This document shows, one piece after another, positions 311 through 26,659 of a stretch of DNA of 31,980 nucleotides (positions within the stretch are counted from its first letter, which is position 1; every line of letters starts with the position of its first letter). Both the position numbers and the translations under genes were made by a program. The DNA comes from Promethearchaeota archaeon Loki_b31. GTDB taxonomy: Archaea; Asgardarchaeota; Lokiarchaeia; Sigyniarchaeales; SOKP01. Where the stretch lies: positions 1-31,980 of the forward strand of contig NJBI01000040.1 in assembly GCA_005222975.1 (NCBI GenBank). Direction: 5' to 3'. The notes under the pieces are model-generated. The model was not told the DNA's origin. It did not search any database and saw only the letters and a list, made by a program, of their open reading frames with translations.

Positions 311-1572
311 TTATATTTTTTTTGCGATTAAATCAATTATATCTATAACTGTAATCTTTTCTTGGACTTCAGTTTCCATTTCTTTATACGCGTCTCTAAA
401 ATTGCCAATACAGAATGGACAACTCGTTGTTAGTATTTCAGCACCAGTTTCTATTGCTTCTTGAATTCTTTCTTTTGAGATATCAAGAGCCAATTCGGGA
501 AATTGACTTTTTACGCCTCCTCCAGCTCCACAGCACCAGGCATTCTTACGGTTTCTTTTCATTTCTACTAGTTCAATTCCCGGAATTTTCGATAATAGTT
601 CTCTAGGTATTTCGTAAAGATCCATATGACGTCCTAAATGGCAAGGATCGTGCCATGTTATGATTTCCGCACCTTCTACGGATTTAAACGGTATTTCGTC
701 ATTACTTAACATCTCAACTAAAATTTCAGTAATATGCTTTATTTCAAACGGTAATTCCTCACCTAGTAATTCAGGATAATCCTTTTTCCAAGTTCTATAA
801 CATCCTGCACATGCTGTAAAGACTGTTTTAGCTCCCATATTCTTAAAAACTTCTATGTTATGCCTAATTATATCAGTTAGAGCCCTTTCATCGCCGATCC
901 TCAAGGCAACAGAACCACAACACCACTCGTTTTTAGACATTGCGATATCTTTTCCAGCAGCTTTCAAAATTTTCATCATACTTTTCAATGTATCTACTTG
1001 TCTTAATGGCATCGTGCACCCTCCAAAAAACACTAATTCTCCTTTGTCCTTGATTTCGGGAAATTCAGTTGTCCACTCGAATTTTTTTGCTTCTTCTTCG
1101 CCGTAAGGATTTCTCATAGTATCGTTGTTCATGTAATCAATTAACTTGCCGTGTCTATCAAGGGGAGCGAAGCCAGCTTCTATTAGATCTTTTCGTAACG
1201 CTTCCCATACTTTTACATGGTCGATCCATTTAGATGTATTAAGAACGATATACTCGTTTTGAGACATATGACACACTTCTGTGCAATTCCCGCATTCCAT
1301 GCATTCGTAAACTAATTCCGCGAGTTCTCTGGAAAGAGGAATCTGTCCTTCTAATATACTTTTAAGAACGTTCATCCTTCCTCGAGCAAAATAAATTTCA
1401 AAACCTCCTTCTTCCTTAGCTTCCTTAACCGGACAAGTTAAGTATCGCTCAACTGCCGGTCGAATGGCGTATCCGCAATCCCCACATCCCAAATGCCGAT
1501 CTAGGTATTCTAGAACCGTATACACGAAAAGATTGCTTTCCACTCTTCCCTTAAATGTTTTAATTCACTCAA
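311..1572 (-). CDS. Fe-S oxidoreductase (GlcF/HdrD-like, 4Fe-4S dicluster plus two CCG domains); predicted spliced gene join(1572..1520,1490..311), 410 aa
   Basis: CMECGNCTEVC, WCCG, CAGC, WHDPCHLGR, CCGAGGG and SCPFC motifs. TTG start at 1572 follows a GGTGA RBS and overlaps the upstream stop. Exon 1 reads MSELKHLREEWKAIFSC. Removing 1491-1519 gives CMGCGDC, matching LKELEKEIYKCIHCKAC in the paralog at 25298. Confidence 0.9.
1491..1519 (-). other. 29-nt bulge-helix-bulge (BHB) intron in a protein-coding gene
   Basis: Minus-strand RNA reads UUC-GUGU-AU^A-CGGUUCUAG-AAUAC-CUAGAUCG-GCAU-UU^G-GGA: 4-bp helix GUGU/GCAU, 3-nt bulges AUA and UUG, an intron hairpin and an exon stem. It contains an in-frame TAG, and its removal restores frame and the CxxCxxC motif. 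Confidence 0.85.
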
Positions 1573-3091
1573 TTTTACTATCACCCCAAAAGTTAAATTT
1601 TCCTCTACTTAGTATTGATTTTGGATCAAGTATATATTTTATTGACTTCATAAAATTATAGAATTCTGGCGTGTAAGCTCCAATATCGACCATCAGACGA
1701 GACATCAAATCTCCCATCATATACCACTGAACCCCGTTTTTTGTCACTCTTTCTAATAGCGATTTCCAGAGCTTTAAATTTATCTCATTGAGAAATTCAT
1801 GATTTTCTCCATCGAAATAACTTCCAAAACTAGTAAAACCACATGTTATTTCTACGTTATTTCCATCAACTAATACAATTGGTCCACTCCCTACAATCGG
1901 ACGACTTTTTGTAATATTTAAAATTTTTTGCATATCTTCATTATGTTCCATGTCCCATTGCTCGATATCGTTTAAAATCTCAGGATATAAATTGATTGGG
2001 CTCATACTTTCTGCTGTTAATGGTTCCATGCATGGAGACATCCCCCATAAGTTATGATAGAATTGCCAATGTCCTTGTTCGGTGTAATGCCATTTAGCGA
2101 TGTTCCCGTCAGAAATTTCTGAACCCAATTCTTCTGTCTTATTATTTAGCATAATTTCGTCTAATTGTTTTACTTTCTCCTCTAATTCTTTTTCCGAATT
2201 TGCTTCGATCGTATAAAAGATTATACCTCTCTTTTTTTTCAAGTTTTCCCAAAACGGAAACATTCCTTGGTCACAACCTATTCTAACAATAAGATCCATC
2301 ATATACATAACATCGTAAACATCAATTCCCTTTTGCCTGATTTCAGTCATTAATTTTGCCGAAACTTCTCTTTCTTTTCGAGGTAATTGAAATGTTTTAT
2401 ATGCTGCGAATTGTGGTCTTGGAAATATTTGTAATGAAACTTTAGTTTTCACGCCAAAAATTCCATTGTCACCACAGAAAAGCCCAGCTAAATCAGGACC
2501 ATTACCAAATCGATTGAAAGGGAATTTGGAGTACTTATTAGCCTGAGAACCCGTTTCAATGATATCGCCCGTCGGAAGTACTACCTCCAATGAAACCAAT
2601 TGATTAGTACATGCTCCATATTTCGCACACCCCCCTCCACCTACTGAATGATGAGATATTCCGCCTCCTACAGCCGCAGTCATTCCGGAACCCGGTCCCA
2701 TACAACCCGTATAAAGACCATAATGACACAAATATTCGTTTAATTTTCCCCAAGAAATTCCGGCTTCAACAGTTACGATAAGATTTTCTTGGTCTAAATT
2801 GATAATCTCGTTCATTCTTTTCATATCTAATACTATTCCACCATCCCCTATGGGTTTACTTCCACCGAATTCACAATCCCCACCTCCACGAGGTGTAACG
2901 GGGATATTTTCAATGTTTGCAATTTTAAGAATTTCTGCAATCTCTTGAGCATCTTTCGGTCTAATTACGATATCAGGGACTCCTTGCAATACGGGGTCTA
3001 CATTTCTTGAATACGCGTGCCGTACATAAATACTGTTAGAGATGAATTTCTCTTTAACGATATTTTCTAATTTTTTATATACTTCAGACAA
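1565..3091 (-). CDS. FAD-binding oxidoreductase (GlcD/D-lactate dehydrogenase, VAO/PCMH family)
   Basis: PDIVIRP...PRGGG, VEAG, LEVVLPTG, GPDL..LFCGDNGIFGVKT and C-terminal K..LDP..IL..GK. Start is probably TTG 3091 (GAGGT RBS; aligns with the paralog's MSEL...KLENIVKEK) rather than 3112. Confidence 0.9.
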   Translation of the reverse strand: MSEVYKKLENIVKEKFISNSIYVRHAYSRNVDPVLQGVPDIVIRPKDAQEIAEILKIANIENIPVTPRGGGDCEFGGSKPIGDGGIVLDMKRMNEIINLDQENLIVTVEAGISWGKLNEYLCHYGLYTGCMGPGSGMTAAVGGGISHHSVGGGGCAKYGACTNQLVSLEVVLPTGDIIETGSQANKYSKFPFNRFGNGPDLAGLFCGDNGIFGVKTKVSLQIFPRPQFAAYKTFQLPRKEREVSAKLMTEIRQKGIDVYDVMYMMDLIVRIGCDQGMFPFWENLKKKRGIIFYTIEANSEKELEEKVKQLDEIMLNNKTEELGSEISDGNIAKWHYTEQGHWQFYHNLWGMSPCMEPLTAESMSPINLYPEILNDIEQWDMEHNEDMQKILNITKSRPIVGSGPIVLVDGNNVEITCGFTSFGSYFDGENHEFLNEINLKLWKSLLERVTKNGVQWYMMGDLMSRLMVDIGAYTPEFYNFMKSIKYILDPKSILSRGKFNFWGDSKIE

Positions 3092-3147
3092 TTTTGTTAA
3101 ACCTCTTGACAATTTAATAAAAACAATTTATAATAGATTCTATAAAT

Positions 3148-3571: not shown

Positions 3572-5089
3572 TTATTTTTCTCCCCAGAAATTAAATTTTC
3601 CTCTGCTTAAAATGAACTCAGGGTCAAGCATTTTTTTTATAGATTTCATAAATTTTAAATATTCTGGCTGAAATGCTCCAATTTCAACCAAAAGTCTACT
3701 AAGAATATCGCCCATCATGTACCAAGTGACACCATGCTTAGTTATTCTTTCGAGTAAAGATTTCCAGAGTTTAAGATTAATTTCTTTAATAATTTCATAA
3801 TTTTTCCCATCAATGTAGCTTTCGAAGCTCGTAAATCCAGTAGTTAGTTCAACATTTTGATCTCCAATCAATATTATTGGTCCTGCCCCGGAAATCGGCC
3901 GCATCCCTGTAATCTCTAAAATCTGCTCCATTTCTTTAGAGTGTTCCATATCCCAAAGCTCAACATCCTTCAAAATTTTTGGATATGTGCTAATTGATGT
4001 ATGGCATTCTGCGTCTAAGGCCGTAAAACCAGGAACTAATCCCCATAAATTATGGGCGATTAACCAGTGCCCTTGTTCCTCGTAATGCCATTTCCCAATA
4101 TTACCATCTGCGATTTCGGGACCTAATTCTTCTGCTTTATTTCGTAGAAAAATCTTGTCTAATTGATTTACCTTTTCTTCCAGTTCCTTTTCAGAATTTG
4201 CCTCAACTGTATAAAAAAGGGTCCCTCTTTTTCTTTTCAAATTCTCCCACAATGGAAATATGCCTTTTTCAGTGCCAATTTTTACTAATAACTCCATAAA
4301 ATACATCGCATCGTAAATGTCAATTCCTCTCTGCCTAATTTCCGTAAAGATTTTTGCTGAGATTTCATCTGATTTTCGAGGCAATACAAATGTTTTATAA
4401 TTCGCAAATGGAGGTTTTGGAAATATTTGTAGTGAAGCTTTTGTTTTTACTCCAAAAATGCCGTTATCGCCACAAAAAAGACTTGCTAAGTCTGGACCGT
4501 TTCCAAATCTATTAAACGGAAACTTTGAAAACTTATTTGCTTGAGATCCCGTTTCAATAATTTCGCCTGTTGGTAAAACTACTTCCAAAGAAACTAATTG
4601 ATTTGTGCACGAACCGTATTTCGCACATCCACCACCTCCTACCGATTGATGTGAAATGCCTCCTCCCACTGACGCGGTTAGTCCGGAGCCTGGGCCTAAA
4701 CATCCAGTGTATAATCCAAAATGACATAAGTATTCGTTTAATTTTCCCCAAGAGATTCCTGCCTCAACGGTTACAATAAGATTTTCTTGATCTAAATTAA
4801 CTATATTATTCATACGTTTTAAGTCCAAGACAATGCCGCCATCTCCTATTGGTTTACTACCGCCAAATTCACAATCGCCACCACCACGAGGAGTAACGGG
4901 GATATTTTCGTCGTTTGCAACTTTTAAAATCTCAGAAATTTCTTTTGTATCTTTCGGCCTAATTACGATGTCAGGGACTCCTTGCAATACGGGGTCTACA
5001 TTCCTCGAATAGGCGTGTCTTACATAAAGACTGTTCGAGATATATTTCTCCTTAACAATATTTTCTAATTTTTGAAACAATTCTGACAA
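3572..5089 (-). CDS. FAD-binding oxidoreductase (GlcD-like), close paralog of 1565-3091
   Basis: Same motifs; the FAD-binding N-terminal half is nearly identical to the downstream paralog. Confidence 0.92.
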   Translation of the reverse strand: MSELFQKLENIVKEKYISNSLYVRHAYSRNVDPVLQGVPDIVIRPKDTKEISEILKVANDENIPVTPRGGGDCEFGGSKPIGDGGIVLDLKRMNNIVNLDQENLIVTVEAGISWGKLNEYLCHFGLYTGCLGPGSGLTASVGGGISHQSVGGGGCAKYGSCTNQLVSLEVVLPTGEIIETGSQANKFSKFPFNRFGNGPDLASLFCGDNGIFGVKTKASLQIFPKPPFANYKTFVLPRKSDEISAKIFTEIRQRGIDIYDAMYFMELLVKIGTEKGIFPLWENLKRKRGTLFYTVEANSEKELEEKVNQLDKIFLRNKAEELGPEIADGNIGKWHYEEQGHWLIAHNLWGLVPGFTALDAECHTSISTYPKILKDVELWDMEHSKEMEQILEITGMRPISGAGPIILIGDQNVELTTGFTSFESYIDGKNYEIIKEINLKLWKSLLERITKHGVTWYMMGDILSRLLVEIGAFQPEYLKFMKSIKKMLDPEFILSRGKFNFWGEK

Positions 5090-16273: not shown

Positions 16274-17136
16274 TGTTGTAGTTACGAGTTTAAATCCTAG
16301 TAAAAAAAAAAATCATTCAAAAATTCTAAGTAATATTGGATACGTTCCTCAACTAGAACTATTGAATTTATATTTTGAATTAGACCCTTTAAAAAATGTT
16401 GATGTGTTTACATCTACTTATGGAATGAACAAAAAAAAGGCAAGGGAAACTGCTGAAAAGCTGTTTAAAATATTGGACATTCCTGAGGACACTTGGAAAA
16501 AAAGGGTATCGCGGATGAGCGGGGGCGAAAAGAAGCGTCTTTCAATGGCTATTGGTTTAATACATAATCCTGATGTATTATTCCTTGATGAACCGACTAC
16601 ACTATTAAGTTGTTTAAACTAATAGAGTTTTAGGTGTCGATGCATCGAAACGCTATGATATACTCAGTTATCTAGAGAAGTTAAACCAGCATTTAAACAC
16701 AACCATGTTTATTATTACACACGATTTAGAAGCGGCACTAATATGTGGTAAAACTGCGATATTAAGGCAGGGGAAATTACTCGAATTTGATACACCTCAA
16801 AAATTAATATCTTCTTTGCCAAGTGGGGGTTTAGTAGCGAGAATTTCAATCGAAAATTTAGATCAAAAAGTAATAAAAACGGTTCAAAAATTTGATTCAG
16901 TCAAAAATGTATTACGCGTTGGAAATGAAACTATCGAAGTATTAATGGAAAATTTTGAGAATAACTTACCTAAATTAATGAAATATTTATTTGCGAATGA
17001 CGTTAAAATTTATTCAATGAGTAGGGATATTGCCAATTTTAGAAGGTTCTTTCAGATTAGAATCCAAGAGGAAGAAGAAAAAGAAAAGGAAGTAGATATT
17101 TCTGAAATAAATAGTGAAGGTGGAATTACATCTTAA
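16068..17136 (+). CDS. ABC transporter ATP-binding protein; predicted spliced gene join(16068..16600,16632..17136), 345 aa
   Basis: Walker A GISGAGKTT, signature MSGGE and Walker B LFLDE lie in exon 1. Removing 16601-16631 gives DEPTTGVDASKR and joins the frame carrying the ITHD H-loop (ORF 16705-17136). Confidence 0.92.
16601..16631 (+). other. 31-nt BHB intron in a protein-coding gene
   Basis: RNA reads ACC-GACU-AC^A-CUAUUAAGUU-GUUUA-AACUAAUAG-AGUU-UU^A-GGU: 4-bp helix GACU/AGUU, bulges ACA and UUA, a 9-bp intron stem and exon stem ACC/GGU. It contains in-frame stop codons. Confidence 0.9.
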
Positions 17137-23787: not shown

Positions 23788-25275
23788 ATGAGCTATAAAT
23801 TACCAGATGATAAAGATTTAGATGCCATGATTGGTATTGTAGGTAAAGATTATGCTACCAATAACAAGGCAATTACAGCGTCATATCTTTCCAAATCTGT
23901 AATGGGTTTAGAAGCCCAAATTCCGGATATCGTCGTGCGCCCCAAATATGTAGAAGAGATTCGTAAAATTCTACTTTACTGCTCTGCAGAAAAAATTGCA
24001 GTCTCACCGGTTTCAGGCGGACTATCTGGCGGCTTTGCATGTCCAACTATTAAACCTGCTGGAGTTATGCTTGATTTAGGTAGAATGAATAGAATTATCG
24101 AAGTCGATACAGATAACCGATATGTCGTAGTCGAACCAGGAGTCACAATTGGGGAGCTTTGGGCTTACATGCACAAAAATTACCCAGAGTGGGCGCCTCC
24201 TGTACCAGACGGTGCCCCACCAGCTTCTACCGTAATGGGCGATGCCATCGATCGAGGATTTTCACTATATACAAGTTCTGTAGGTCCTCAAGGAGATAAC
24301 TTTATGTGCGGTGAGATAGTGTTTCCAAACGGAGATATTGTGCGAACTGGCTCTTGGGCACTTCCATTTGCGAAACCATTCTATAAATACGGACTAGGTC
24401 CAGATATCTGGTCCTTTTTAATGGGTTCACAAGGGACTCTAGGCGTAATGACTAAAGTCGCAGTTAAAATATATCCACATCCAAAATTTAAGACTGTAGT
24501 TGTATGGGGTATGTCCAATCCTGAGGATATGCAGGACTTAACACTTGAAATTGGAAAACAAGAATTTGGAATTGCTCACAACACCGTTATGGTTCAAGGA
24601 GGGAATTATCCTTTAGTAATGACGCGTTGGCCAAAAGATAAAGTTCCTCACGATTACGAATTCTACGAACAGTTAGGAATTAGTAAGTGGTGGATGAATT
24701 GGGAGTGCTGGGCACAAACTCAAGAAGAGTTAGATTATGTGGTTAATAGAATCAATAAAATGGCCGAGGATTTCAAGAAAAATAGAGCTAAAGACCCTGA
24801 TAGCATGAAACCTCAGGAACTACATCCCAAACAAATCGCAAGCAGATTGAAGAAACCAAATAAAATAGCGGTTCCCTATGCGTTTTGGGAGGCAGGTTTT
24901 TTATTCATTACATTCTATACCCCATGGAACGAATGCGCACATTTTGCTAACATGTATACTGCTGCTATGGAGAAATATGGTTTTCCACCAGTTATGTGGA
25001 TTGCTAGTATTGAGCGTTGTAGGCAAGCAATTTGTATGCCAATTATTTGTTTCGATAGCACAAAACAATCAGATATCGAAAAAGTTCAAGAGATGAATAG
25101 AGAAACAACAGAATACGCACTTAAGCAAGGGTGGTTGAATTATCGTCCAGATCCATACATCCACGCACCTCTCACTTATTCTCAAGCAGGAATGTATTGG
25201 AAATATTTGAGAACGATGAAGAAGATTTTTGATCCTAATATGATAATGCATCCTGGGAGGCTTGCTCTTCCATAA
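23788..25275 (+). CDS. FAD-binding oxidoreductase (GlcD/VAO family)
   Basis: PDIVVRP, VEPGVT, GPD…GSQGTLGVMT and KKIFDPNMIMHPG motifs. Confidence 0.9.
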   Translation: MSYKLPDDKDLDAMIGIVGKDYATNNKAITASYLSKSVMGLEAQIPDIVVRPKYVEEIRKILLYCSAEKIAVSPVSGGLSGGFACPTIKPAGVMLDLGRMNRIIEVDTDNRYVVVEPGVTIGELWAYMHKNYPEWAPPVPDGAPPASTVMGDAIDRGFSLYTSSVGPQGDNFMCGEIVFPNGDIVRTGSWALPFAKPFYKYGLGPDIWSFLMGSQGTLGVMTKVAVKIYPHPKFKTVVVWGMSNPEDMQDLTLEIGKQEFGIAHNTVMVQGGNYPLVMTRWPKDKVPHDYEFYEQLGISKWWMNWECWAQTQEELDYVVNRINKMAEDFKKNRAKDPDSMKPQELHPKQIASRLKKPNKIAVPYAFWEAGFLFITFYTPWNECAHFANMYTAAMEKYGFPPVMWIASIERCRQAICMPIICFDSTKQSDIEKVQEMNRETTEYALKQGWLNYRPDPYIHAPLTYSQAGMYWKYLRTMKKIFDPNMIMHPGRLALP

Positions 25276-25297: not shown

Positions 25298-26659
25298 ATG
25301 GCTAAAACTGGAATGGAAAGATTAAAAGAATTGGAGAAGGAAATATATAAGTGTATCCACTGTAAGGCGTGTAGGTTTGCTTATTCGGGAGAGCCTAGTA
25401 GAAACGGAATAGGGGAGTTCGCTGGAAAACAAGGTACAGTTCTTTACGAAGGAATGGTTGACTCGTGTCCAGCTGGAATAGAATACGGTTGGGAAGCGTT
25501 TTGGAACGCCGGTAAAATTTGGATTGCTCGTTCAATTTTAAGCGGAGATTTAGAATTCTCTGACGAAGTAAGGGATGTTATTATGCCGTGCATTACATGC
25601 GGGCAATGTGCAGCCCAATGTGAAAATAAAATACCCACAGTAGACATCATTGAATCTTTACGGGCTGCGTGTATAGAATCGGACGTCCCTATGATTGAGA
25701 AACATGAATTAGTCGATCGCTTAGTCAAGGAATTAAACAATCCTTACGGTGGGAAGGCAGAAGAGCGGTTTAAATGGGCTAAAGACGCTGGTTTAGGGAA
25801 ATATATTAACAATAAAAGCGCTAAGGTTGGTTATTATGTCGGATGTACAGCGAGTTATCGTCAAATAGAAGTTGCTACTGCTACAGCAAAAATATTCGAA
25901 GAATTAGGGATTGATTTTACATTAATCGAAGATGAAGTGTGTTGTGGGAGCCCTTTCTTTAGGATTGGAGCCGTTGAAACTGCTCAAGAGTTAATGAGGA
26001 AAAATCTCGAGGCGTTTAAGGATTTAGAAACGGTCTATTTCTCATGTGCGGGTTGTTATCAGACTATAACGATTGATTATCCAAAGTGGATGGCAGAAGA
26101 CGAGAAGCTCCCTTTTAAAACCATGCACGCGTTTGAATTAGTTTCAAAATTAATCATTGAAGGAAAGATTAAGTTCAAACCTAATAAAGAACTCAAGGGA
26201 AAAGTTGTAACCTATCACGACCCTTGCCATACCGGGAGACATTTCGCTCTAGACATGGAACAAGAAATGATCAAGAACTCCAAGAACTTAATGTTTGATA
26301 TGCGAAAGGTAAACAAAGCGATCGACGAATGGTTTGAAATTCCTAGAGTTATTTTACGGAAACTTGAAGAAGACGTCGGTATCAAGTTTGTTGAGATGTA
26401 TCGTATAAAGAATAATTCAATGTGTTGTGGAGCAGGAGGAGGAGTAAGGGCAGGTTATCCCGACTTTTCATTGCGCACAGCTAGTCTTCGATGCGACGAG
26501 GCTAATGCGGTGAAGGCTGATATCCTAACAACCGAATGCCCCTTTTGTTGGAGAAATTTAAGCGATGCCAATGGTCTTTACAATCATGGTATGCAGGTAA
26601 TGGGCGTTCTGGAAATGATATCCACGTACCATCTTTTAGATAAATCAAACATGAAATAA
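25298..26659 (+). CDS. Fe-S oxidoreductase (GlcF/HdrD-like)
   Basis: CIHCKAC…CP, CITCGQCAAQC, CCG, YHDPCH, CCGAGGG and ECPFC motifs; AAGGAGGT RBS. Confidence 0.92.
   Translation: MAKTGMERLKELEKEIYKCIHCKACRFAYSGEPSRNGIGEFAGKQGTVLYEGMVDSCPAGIEYGWEAFWNAGKIWIARSILSGDLEFSDEVRDVIMPCITCGQCAAQCENKIPTVDIIESLRAACIESDVPMIEKHELVDRLVKELNNPYGGKAEERFKWAKDAGLGKYINNKSAKVGYYVGCTASYRQIEVATATAKIFEELGIDFTLIEDEVCCGSPFFRIGAVETAQELMRKNLEAFKDLETVYFSCAGCYQTITIDYPKWMAEDEKLPFKTMHAFELVSKLIIEGKIKFKPNKELKGKVVTYHDPCHTGRHFALDMEQEMIKNSKNLMFDMRKVNKAIDEWFEIPRVILRKLEEDVGIKFVEMYRIKNNSMCCGAGGGVRAGYPDFSLRTASLRCDEANAVKADILTTECPFCWRNLSDANGLYNHGMQVMGVLEMISTYHLLDKSNMK

Follow-up and report, generated by a model that had tools for sequence, protein, structure and literature searches.

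In the searchable literature, bulge-helix-bulge (BHB) introns of archaeal messenger RNAs (mRNAs) are described only in cbf5 of the Crenarchaeota and in the 5' untranslated region (UTR) of HVO_1309, and none is described in an Asgard coding sequence (CDS). The cbf5 gene encodes a pseudouridine synthase, and its pre-mRNA carries a BHB intron in Desulfurococcales and Sulfolobales (Watanabe 2002; Yoshinari 2006; Yokobori 2009, PMC2738675). HVO_1309 of Haloferax volcanii carries a 46-nucleotide (nt) BHB intron, which was verified by circular-RNA sequencing (circRNA-seq) and in vitro cleavage (Schwarz et al. 2020, PMC7714728). As of 2020, cbf5 was the only other mRNA case (PMC7714728). Here, we describe a 29-nt insert in the CDS of an iron-sulfur (Fe-S) protein gene from Promethearchaeota archaeon Loki_b31 (contig NJBI01000040.1, assembly GCA_005222975.1). 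The analyzed DNA comprises positions 1 to 31,980 of the contig and is referred to below as the window; all coordinates are window positions. On comparative grounds, minus-strand positions 1519 to 1491 very probably constitute a spliced BHB intron within the CDS of an HdrD/GlcF-like Fe-S gene (Table 1).

This locus resembles cbf5 in several respects. In both cases, a small intron with a BHB fold is located in an archaeal CDS (that of cbf5 is recognized by a hetero-oligomeric tRNA-splicing endonuclease), splits a catalytically important motif, is precisely absent from some lineages, and misleads gene prediction. The rule applied here, with the cut placed after the second bulge base, was also used for cbf5 (PMC2738675). 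In contrast, the host gene and the phylum differ (Asgard versus Crenarchaeota), and the fold is a canonical 3-4-3 hBHBh' structure, whereas most cbf5 introns have an unconventional BHB (PMC2738675). Turnover also differs, with at least nine changes on the Fe-S gene tree compared to about two losses for cbf5, and nested double introns occur at the Fe-S gene site. Splicing has been demonstrated experimentally for cbf5, while that of the Fe-S gene is predicted. The possibility that the insert is a homologue of the cbf5 intron was considered and rejected, as the host is a CCG-domain Fe-S protein and the insertion point is not the catalytic Asp codon of cbf5. Like HVO_1309, the Fe-S gene would provide an mRNA substrate for an archaeal splicing endonuclease; however, the HVO_1309 intron lies in an untranslated leader, where no reading frame is broken. 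The introns of Asgard transfer RNA (tRNA) genes share the same motif, the expected enzymes (EndA, often as two paralogs, and RtcB), the size range, and repeated gain and loss, but the preprint describing them covers tRNA genes only, whereas the host here is an mRNA (bioRxiv 10.64898/2026.10.13.758758). The predicted intron is of the cbf5-type class in a new phylum, with an unusually rich comparative record. In eukaryotes, HAC1/XBP1 mRNA loses a small CDS intron by the action of Ire1 and a tRNA-type ligase (RtcB in metazoa), which changes the reading frame. That system employs another nuclease, contains twin stem-loops rather than a BHB, and is stress regulated; no evolutionary link is implied.

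Anatomy of the insert and comparison with intron-less orthologs

The host gene encodes an HdrD/GlcF-like Fe-S subunit in which Pfam identified the CCG domain twice (129.7 bits). Its N-terminal region is a dicluster ferredoxin-like domain with two CxxCxxC motifs, which together with the two CCG domains marks HdrD/GlcF-like CCG subunits; the first of these motifs is predicted to be whole only after splicing. Fer4_8 matched the window protein below its cutoff (24 bits versus 27), and its score had no power to distinguish the possible N-termini (21.9 bits for the spliced type and 24 bits for the alternative discussed below, both under the cutoff). Two reading frames, 29 nt out of register, cover the 5' end of the gene. 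The frame that begins at TTG 1572 overlaps the stop codon (TGA 1567 to 1565, minus strand) of the upstream flavin adenine dinucleotide (FAD) oxidase gene, reads MSELKHLREEWKAIFSCIRF, and then meets a TAG stop inside a hairpin. The second is an open reading frame (ORF) of 410 amino acids (aa) that starts at GTG 1543 and has the N-terminus MESNLFVYTVLEYLDRHLGCGDC. A first-pass annotation, prepared from the window alone, had placed a 29-nt BHB intron at 1491 to 1519 within the first CxxCxxC, and every element that it described is present there on the minus strand. The sequence also bears out its choice of TTG 1572, preceded by GGTGA and coupled to the upstream stop, as the start of a frame that ends in the hairpin.

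The structure contains the elements that define a BHB: 3-nt bulges flanking a central helix (H) of 4 base pairs (bp), an exon-exon helix (h), and an intron-internal hairpin (h') of 8 to 10 bp. On the minus strand, GGGGAUUGC (1483 to 1475) pairs with GCAAUCUUU (1536 to 1528) as part of the outer helix. The minimum free energy (MFE) fold contains both this GCAAUCUUU/GGGGAUUGC helix and the inner hairpin, in agreement with the earlier proposal that exon pairing extends the fold. A cut after the second base of each bulge would join AU to G and yield a product containing ...AIFSCMGCGDCGYAIR. The predicted spliced CDS (53 + 1180 = 1233 nt) encodes 410 aa, the same length as the orthologs, and the portion encoded by exon 2 is 73 to 95% identical to Asgard orthologs. 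In the RNA, the predicted junction is formed by ...TTTTCGTGTAT followed directly by GGGATGTGGG, and the junction peptide AIFSCMGCGDCGYAIR contrasts with the alternative peptide MESNLFVYTVLEYLDR.

Table 1. Positions of the Fe-S gene, the elements of its predicted intron, and adjoining features (listed in the direction of transcription)
Feature	Coordinates	Strand	Remarks
FAD-binding oxidase gene, GlcD-like, upstream of the Fe-S gene	1565..3112	-	PF01565; stop overlaps TTG start (TTGAGTGA)
Ribosome-binding site GGTGA	1581..1585	-	8 nt upstream of TTG 1572
Exon 1: TTG start 1572-1570, 17 codons MSELKHLREEWKAIFSC, plus AU of the split Met codon	1520..1572	-	Orthologs start at the same place with ATG/GTG/TTG
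Decoy GTG start of annotated 410-aa ORF (MESNLFVY...)	1541..1543	-	
Outer-helix UUC	1528-1526	-	Pairs with GGA 1489-1487
Central helix H, 5' strand GUGU (third base of Ser codon plus Cys codon)	1522..1525	-	Pairs with GCAU 1496-1493
5' bulge AUA	1519..1521	-	Predicted cut between 1520 and 1519; AUA in 47/47 alleles
Predicted BHB intron, 29 nt (A + 22-nt hairpin + GCAU + UU); in-frame TAG, frame shift	1491..1519	-	Exact gap relative to intron-less relatives
Inner helix h' and loop (CGGUUCUAG AAUAC CUAGAUCG), 22-nt hairpin	1497..1518	-	
Central helix H, 3' strand GCAU	1493..1496	-	
3' bulge UUG	1490..1492	-	Predicted cut between 1491 and 1490; third base G in all alleles
Exon 2: G of Met codon, GCGDCGYAIRP... 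to stop; second CxxCxxCxxxC and two CCG domains	311..1490	-	
Outer exon-exon helix h, 3' strand	1475..1489	-	Includes GGA 1489-1487

A protein search retrieved thousands of relatives, the best of which were from Promethearchaeota/Lokiarchaeota metagenome-assembled genomes, and N-termini were compared for the best 120. More than 60 of these proteins are 410 to 411 aa in length and start with MSELKHLKxEWKAI[MF]SCMGCGDCGYAIRP. Intron-less orthologs read ...W-K-A-I-[MF]-S-C-M-G-C-G-D-C, which is the product of joining position 1520 to position 1490, with Met at the junction. The first-pass annotation had predicted an AU + G cut register and had named, beforehand, Met at this position in intron-less orthologs as the check on it, with a conserved MESNLFVY N-terminus as the contrary outcome. 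Met was found. The MESNLFVY sequence is absent from the intron-less orthologs and recurs only in a relative with the same intron (P0140/L110). Other relatives among the best 120 have odd or truncated N-termini (MQKGCGDC, MGCGDC, MLQRGCGDC, MEIIHDRRK...CLGCGDC, and MNVLKS...), which suggests the same annotation problem in other genomes.

The site was then compared at the DNA level. A search of 301 genomes of the phylum, with further matches fetched, gave 46 orthologous loci. An insert is located exactly between TGY-AT and G-GGN in 15/46 of these, and the intron-less loci read TGY-ATG-GGN-TGY. A further 19 species genomes and 32 metagenome contigs came from two pattern scans. In total, 47 distinct alleles have an insert at the site, of which 41 have a single insert (29 to 34 nt) and six have a long one (56 to 61 nt). 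The DNA alignment (A2) contains a clean 29-nt gap in two intron-less loci, L111 (93% identical) and L002 (88%), while L110 (93% identical to the window) carries the same intron with one change, in the 3' bulge. All short alleles share one layout: h UC, H NUGY, bulge AUA, an h' hairpin of 22 to 27 nt, the complement of H, bulge NNG, and h GG. Among the 41 alleles with a single intron, 39 retain 4/4 pairs in the central helix and two retain 3/4. Because the 3' bulge ends in G in 47/47 alleles, the joined codon is always AUG. Cuts at the second base thus always give UGY-AU joined to G-GGN (Cys-Met-Gly), a codon-for-codon match to the intron-less orthologs that upholds the Met register. No cDNA-like pair, consisting of an intron-less allele near-identical to an intron-bearing one, was found among the loci; the best real pair is 96% identical.

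Covariation, nested introns, and constraint on the exons

Covariation was counted for a 15-pair structure on an alignment (A1) of the 41 short introns. Paired cells amounted to 90.1%. Column shuffles gave 73.0 ± 1.0, and none of the 500 was as high, a count that is not a probability because the sequences are related. Controls in which the partner was slid by 1 to 3 columns preserve this relatedness and agree, with at most 48% of cells paired. The covariation score was 0.540 (0.226 in the control), and 122 cells were changed on both sides (42.4 in the control). Changes on both sides were found for 10/15 pairs, and all nine inner-helix pairs changed on both sides among the alleles. The C-G and U-G pairs of outer helix h are invariant (41/41). 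The first pair of the central helix, formed by an intron base and the free third position of the Ser codon, is variously U-A (n = 16), U-G (n = 9), C-G (n = 8), G-U (n = 4), and G-C (n = 2).

The six long alleles (L018, L023, L016, L004, L075, and L085) contain a second predicted canonical BHB intron, of 26 to 31 nt, nested within the 3' bulge region of the outer one; its removal would restore the outer BHB. The sequence GCAG-AAA-[24-nt hairpin]-CUGC-CUG-GGU comes after the first hairpin in L018 and L023, and its GCAG/CUGC segments form a perfect 4-bp helix between two 3-nt bulges. Once this inner intron of 31 nt is taken out, GCAG-AAG-GGU remains, as in an ordinary short-class intron of 30 nt. 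The inner helix varies among the remaining long alleles, with a compensatory GCGG/CCGC in L016, GCAG/CUGU in L075, and 3/4 pairs in L004 and L085. The inner and outer introns of L018 both start with AGGUUU, which hints at duplication. The N-terminus MEIIHDRRK...PCLGCGDC was considered as a real alternative start and rejected; it represents read-through of the nested inner intron, in which the CUGC strand happens to encode Cys.

Exon 1 is open throughout its 17 codons, and its peptide is kept, in 47/47 insert-bearing alleles. A standard start codon is present at the aligned position in 45/47 (43 ATG, 1 GTG, and 1 TTG). The two others (L056 and L104) have ATA or ATT there, and their start probably lies elsewhere. 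Read-through into the insert encounters a stop in 46/47 alleles and a frame shift in the last. Pairwise Nei-Gojobori analysis of exon 1 yielded a ratio of nonsynonymous to synonymous differences (pN/pS) of 0.24 and a corresponding ratio of substitution rates (dN/dS) of ∼0.12. The open frame, the kept peptide, and the low dN/dS together argue that exon 1 is not an untranslated leader. The exons also differ with intron status at sites that leave the protein unaltered. The codon for the Ser that precedes the Cys is TCN in 46/46 insert-bearing alleles, compared to 17/26 intron-less alleles (AGY in eight and GCT in one); the UC of TCN pairs with GG in the Gly codon. Between the flanking 18-nt segments, the predicted duplex energy is -10.8 kcal/mol when the insert is present versus -5.7 when it is absent (Mann-Whitney p ∼1e-8, calculated on alleles that are not independent). 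Judged from these comparisons, exon synonymous sites are shaped by the predicted fold.

Splicing machinery and alternative explanations

The genome (3.52 Mb, 99 contigs, 31.5% G+C) has tRNA genes rich in introns. It encodes RtcB (one match, 562 bits) and two EndA paralogs of 200 and 201 aa, both of which match PF01974 above the cutoff (97.7 and 70.5 bits, respectively). The EndA genes lie at 36,068 to 36,670 of contig C13 and at 4,939 to 5,544 of contig C79 (minus strand). The first paralog best matches the catalytic chains of the Aeropyrum/Pyrobaculum heterotetramers (3p1z_B, 3ajv_B, and 2zyz_B), while the second gives a weaker family match and, by motif reading, is without the catalytic His. 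The pair looks like the broad-specificity (alpha-beta)2 type, which, as outlined in PMC5829648, accepts a broad substrate range. A two-paralog pattern has been reported in the Asgard tRNA-intron preprint (bioRxiv 10.64898/2026.10.13.758758).

In the proposed mechanism, exons 1 and 2 of the pre-mRNA would pair as the outer helix, and GUGU, the last four exon 1 bases before the bulge, would pair with GCAU near the 3' end of the intron. Bulges AUA and UUG would then face each other across the 4-bp helix, with the intron interior folded as a hairpin. The tRNA-splicing endonuclease would cut after the second base of each bulge, and RtcB would join the exons, thereby completing the AUG codon, and would probably circularize the 29-nt intron. 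The complete first CxxCxxC (C-M-G-C-G-D-C), which belongs to the N-terminal 4Fe-4S site, would be encoded by the spliced mRNA only. Without splicing, the product would be a 20-residue peptide or, with initiation at GTG 1543, a protein without the first Cys. We infer cleavage, ligation, and constitutive removal of the intron.

Several observations weigh against this interpretation. The BHB shape alone is common by chance in the AT-rich DNA of the window, where a loose scan retrieved 793 matches and a stricter scan retrieved 49 (38.7 ± 5.8 in shuffles). The z-score of the fold is only -1.05, which is not significant; the full BHB conformation is 2.7 kcal/mol less stable than the MFE; and the outer helix next to the bulge is short (2 to 3 bp). 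The intron is located 51 nt past a start codon with translational coupling to the upstream gene, and ribosomes could compete with folding. Moreover, the alpha/beta assignment of the EndA paralogs rests on a reading of their catalytic motifs. By itself, the BHB shape is weak evidence; the argument depends on how the cut sites coincide with the ortholog indel and on the comparative data. In the same scans, the chance frequency of a BHB at one given site and length was ∼6e-5 to 2e-4, and the coincidence of the predicted BHB cut sites with an ortholog-defined 29-nt indel is far beyond chance. A whole-genome search with a covariance model built on the intron (R1) retrieved this site only (51.5 bits; E of at least 0.3 for the next matches). 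The next matches lie within intact ORFs; thus, the intron is not a multi-copy element at the sequence level. None of the Rfam families attains its gathering score at any point in the window. A self-splicing (group I or group II) intron was rejected on this basis and because 29 nt is far too small.

Explanations that dispense with splicing must account for the same comparative record. If the insert were a tolerated lesion, the gene would be a pseudogene or would be expressed from GTG 1543 with one Cys missing; the ORF from GTG 1543 is indeed open and full-length, and it is the protein held in the database. Exon 1 would then be untranslated, yet its frame is kept in every insert-bearing allele with the low dN/dS given above. 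Decoy N-termini are also wholly different between intron types, the fold of the insert covaries with exon bases, and inserts of 29, 30, 31, 34, and 56 to 61 nt all restore the same junction. We consider a tolerated lesion very improbable. Translation across the gap, whether by frameshifting or by bypassing as in phage T4 gene 60, is scarcely credible. The stop codon soon after the break and the hairpin in the gap are superficially like gene 60, but matching take-off and landing codons are missing (UGU AUA ... UUG GGA), and the conserved Met codon exists only once AU and G are joined. The gaps range from 29 to 61 nt and include all three frames and several stops, and the conserved 3-4-3 bulge-helix-bulge geometry, with its covariation, has no role in bypassing.

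It is also conceivable that the intron is spliced but kept as a useful switch, which would tie production of the Fe-S subunit either to the activity of EndA/RtcB or to upstream-gene translation. At 51 nt past a coupled start codon, folding would be affected by ribosome traffic, and some intron sequences are far more conserved than neighboring synonymous sites. Furthermore, removal of the 5' UTR BHB intron appears to matter for HVO_1309 expression in Haloferax (PMC7714728). However, roughly two-thirds of the orthologs are intron-less, often being the closest relatives of intron-bearing ones, and the gene tree forces at least nine changes (16 by parsimony). We consider such a switch unlikely. 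We take the intron to be a passenger that the cell must remove, rather than a regulator.

Turnover at the site, genomic context, and implications

Intron presence was mapped on a tree of exon 2 proteins (65 rows, quick IQ-TREE). The 16 parsimony changes include at least nine that are forced by well-supported branches alone. Intron-less and intron-bearing genes are often nearest neighbors, and the closest relative of the window (L082, 94% aa identity) carries a different, 31-nt intron. A single origin with one intron-bearing clade was rejected, as the gene tree gives it no support. The similarity of two introns is not correlated with that of their host genes (Mantel rho -0.05). The introns of L031/L081 (31/31) and L017/L083 (30/31) are near-identical, while the third codon positions of exon 2 are only 50 to 57% identical. 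In such pairs, exon 1 is unusually similar and the DNA upstream of the start is unrelated. Five pairs (L031/L081, L017/L083, L031/L087, L010/L079, and L021/L086) display a mosaic block of ∼80 to 100 nt, with exon 2 synonymous sites near saturation; the block in near-identical-intron pairs looks like recombination or co-conversion. At matched exon 2 divergence, exon 1 identity was 0.73 where both members lacked the intron, 0.77 where the two intron types differed, and 0.86 where they were the same (n = 13). Sharing of exon 1 together with the intron may reflect transfer with co-conversion, or selection at the RNA level. We tentatively suggest, as a possibility that falls short of being probable, that the site is one locus of an active Lokiarchaeia mRNA-intron system, in which BHB mini-introns would be gained, lost, replaced, and nested and would move between lineages with a short flanking exon tract.

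A second predicted BHB intron, of 31 nt, was observed in the window at 16601 to 16631 (plus strand), in an ABC-transporter ATPase gene just past the Walker B motif. Its fold would be GACU-ACA-[24-nt hairpin]-AGUU-UUA-GGU, and the cuts would join ACU AC to A GGU GUC, with ...LFLDEPTT continuing into GVDASKR in the product. Exon 1 of this gene matches PF00005 as far as the final position of the profile, and the frame of exon 2 is open between 16633 and 17136.

The window contains three GlcD-like FAD-oxidase genes. Two form a tandem pair (1565 to 3112 and 3572 to 5089, minus strand) with a 104-aa ORF between them. The third (23788 to 25275, plus strand) is paired with a second CCG Fe-S paralog (25298 to 26659), which is intron-less and has CIHCKAC as its first motif. 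By a motif test, a GlcD-like gene is directly upstream of 23/26 intron-less copies of the Fe-S gene versus 15/39 intron-bearing copies. Loci L003, L014 to L018, L021, L031, L034, L082, and L083 instead have AT-rich intergenic DNA upstream and no adjoining GlcD-like gene. Some genomes (G267 and G276) contain two copies of the Fe-S gene.

The first-pass annotation had warned that gene callers would be misled by an intron of this kind, and the database entries are as it foresaw. For the contig, the deposited protein (P0124) corresponds to the 410-aa decoy ORF, and the entries for many relatives are truncated, at 354 to 396 aa. Public annotation is wrong throughout the gene family wherever the intron is present. 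In the window, the entry is the decoy ORF at 311 to 1543 (minus strand); affected annotations among the relatives include P0016, P0038, P0071, P0109, and P0141 to P0146, and the 354- to 396-aa proteins found elsewhere are called from internal Met codons. Asgard proteomes, metabolic reconstructions, and phylogenies based on automatic gene calls therefore carry systematic errors at any site with such an intron.

Splicing of coding messages by the tRNA machinery has been documented for one archaeal gene (cbf5) and one 5' UTR, and it is now predicted in Asgard archaea, the closest known archaeal relatives of eukaryotes. With dozens of alleles of a conserved metabolic gene that display presence, absence, and nesting at one site, the gain, loss, and constraint of CDS introns become testable. 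If the tentatively suggested mRNA-intron system is real, the closest archaeal relatives of eukaryotes would possess mobile, protein-independent CDS introns with a testable route of spread.

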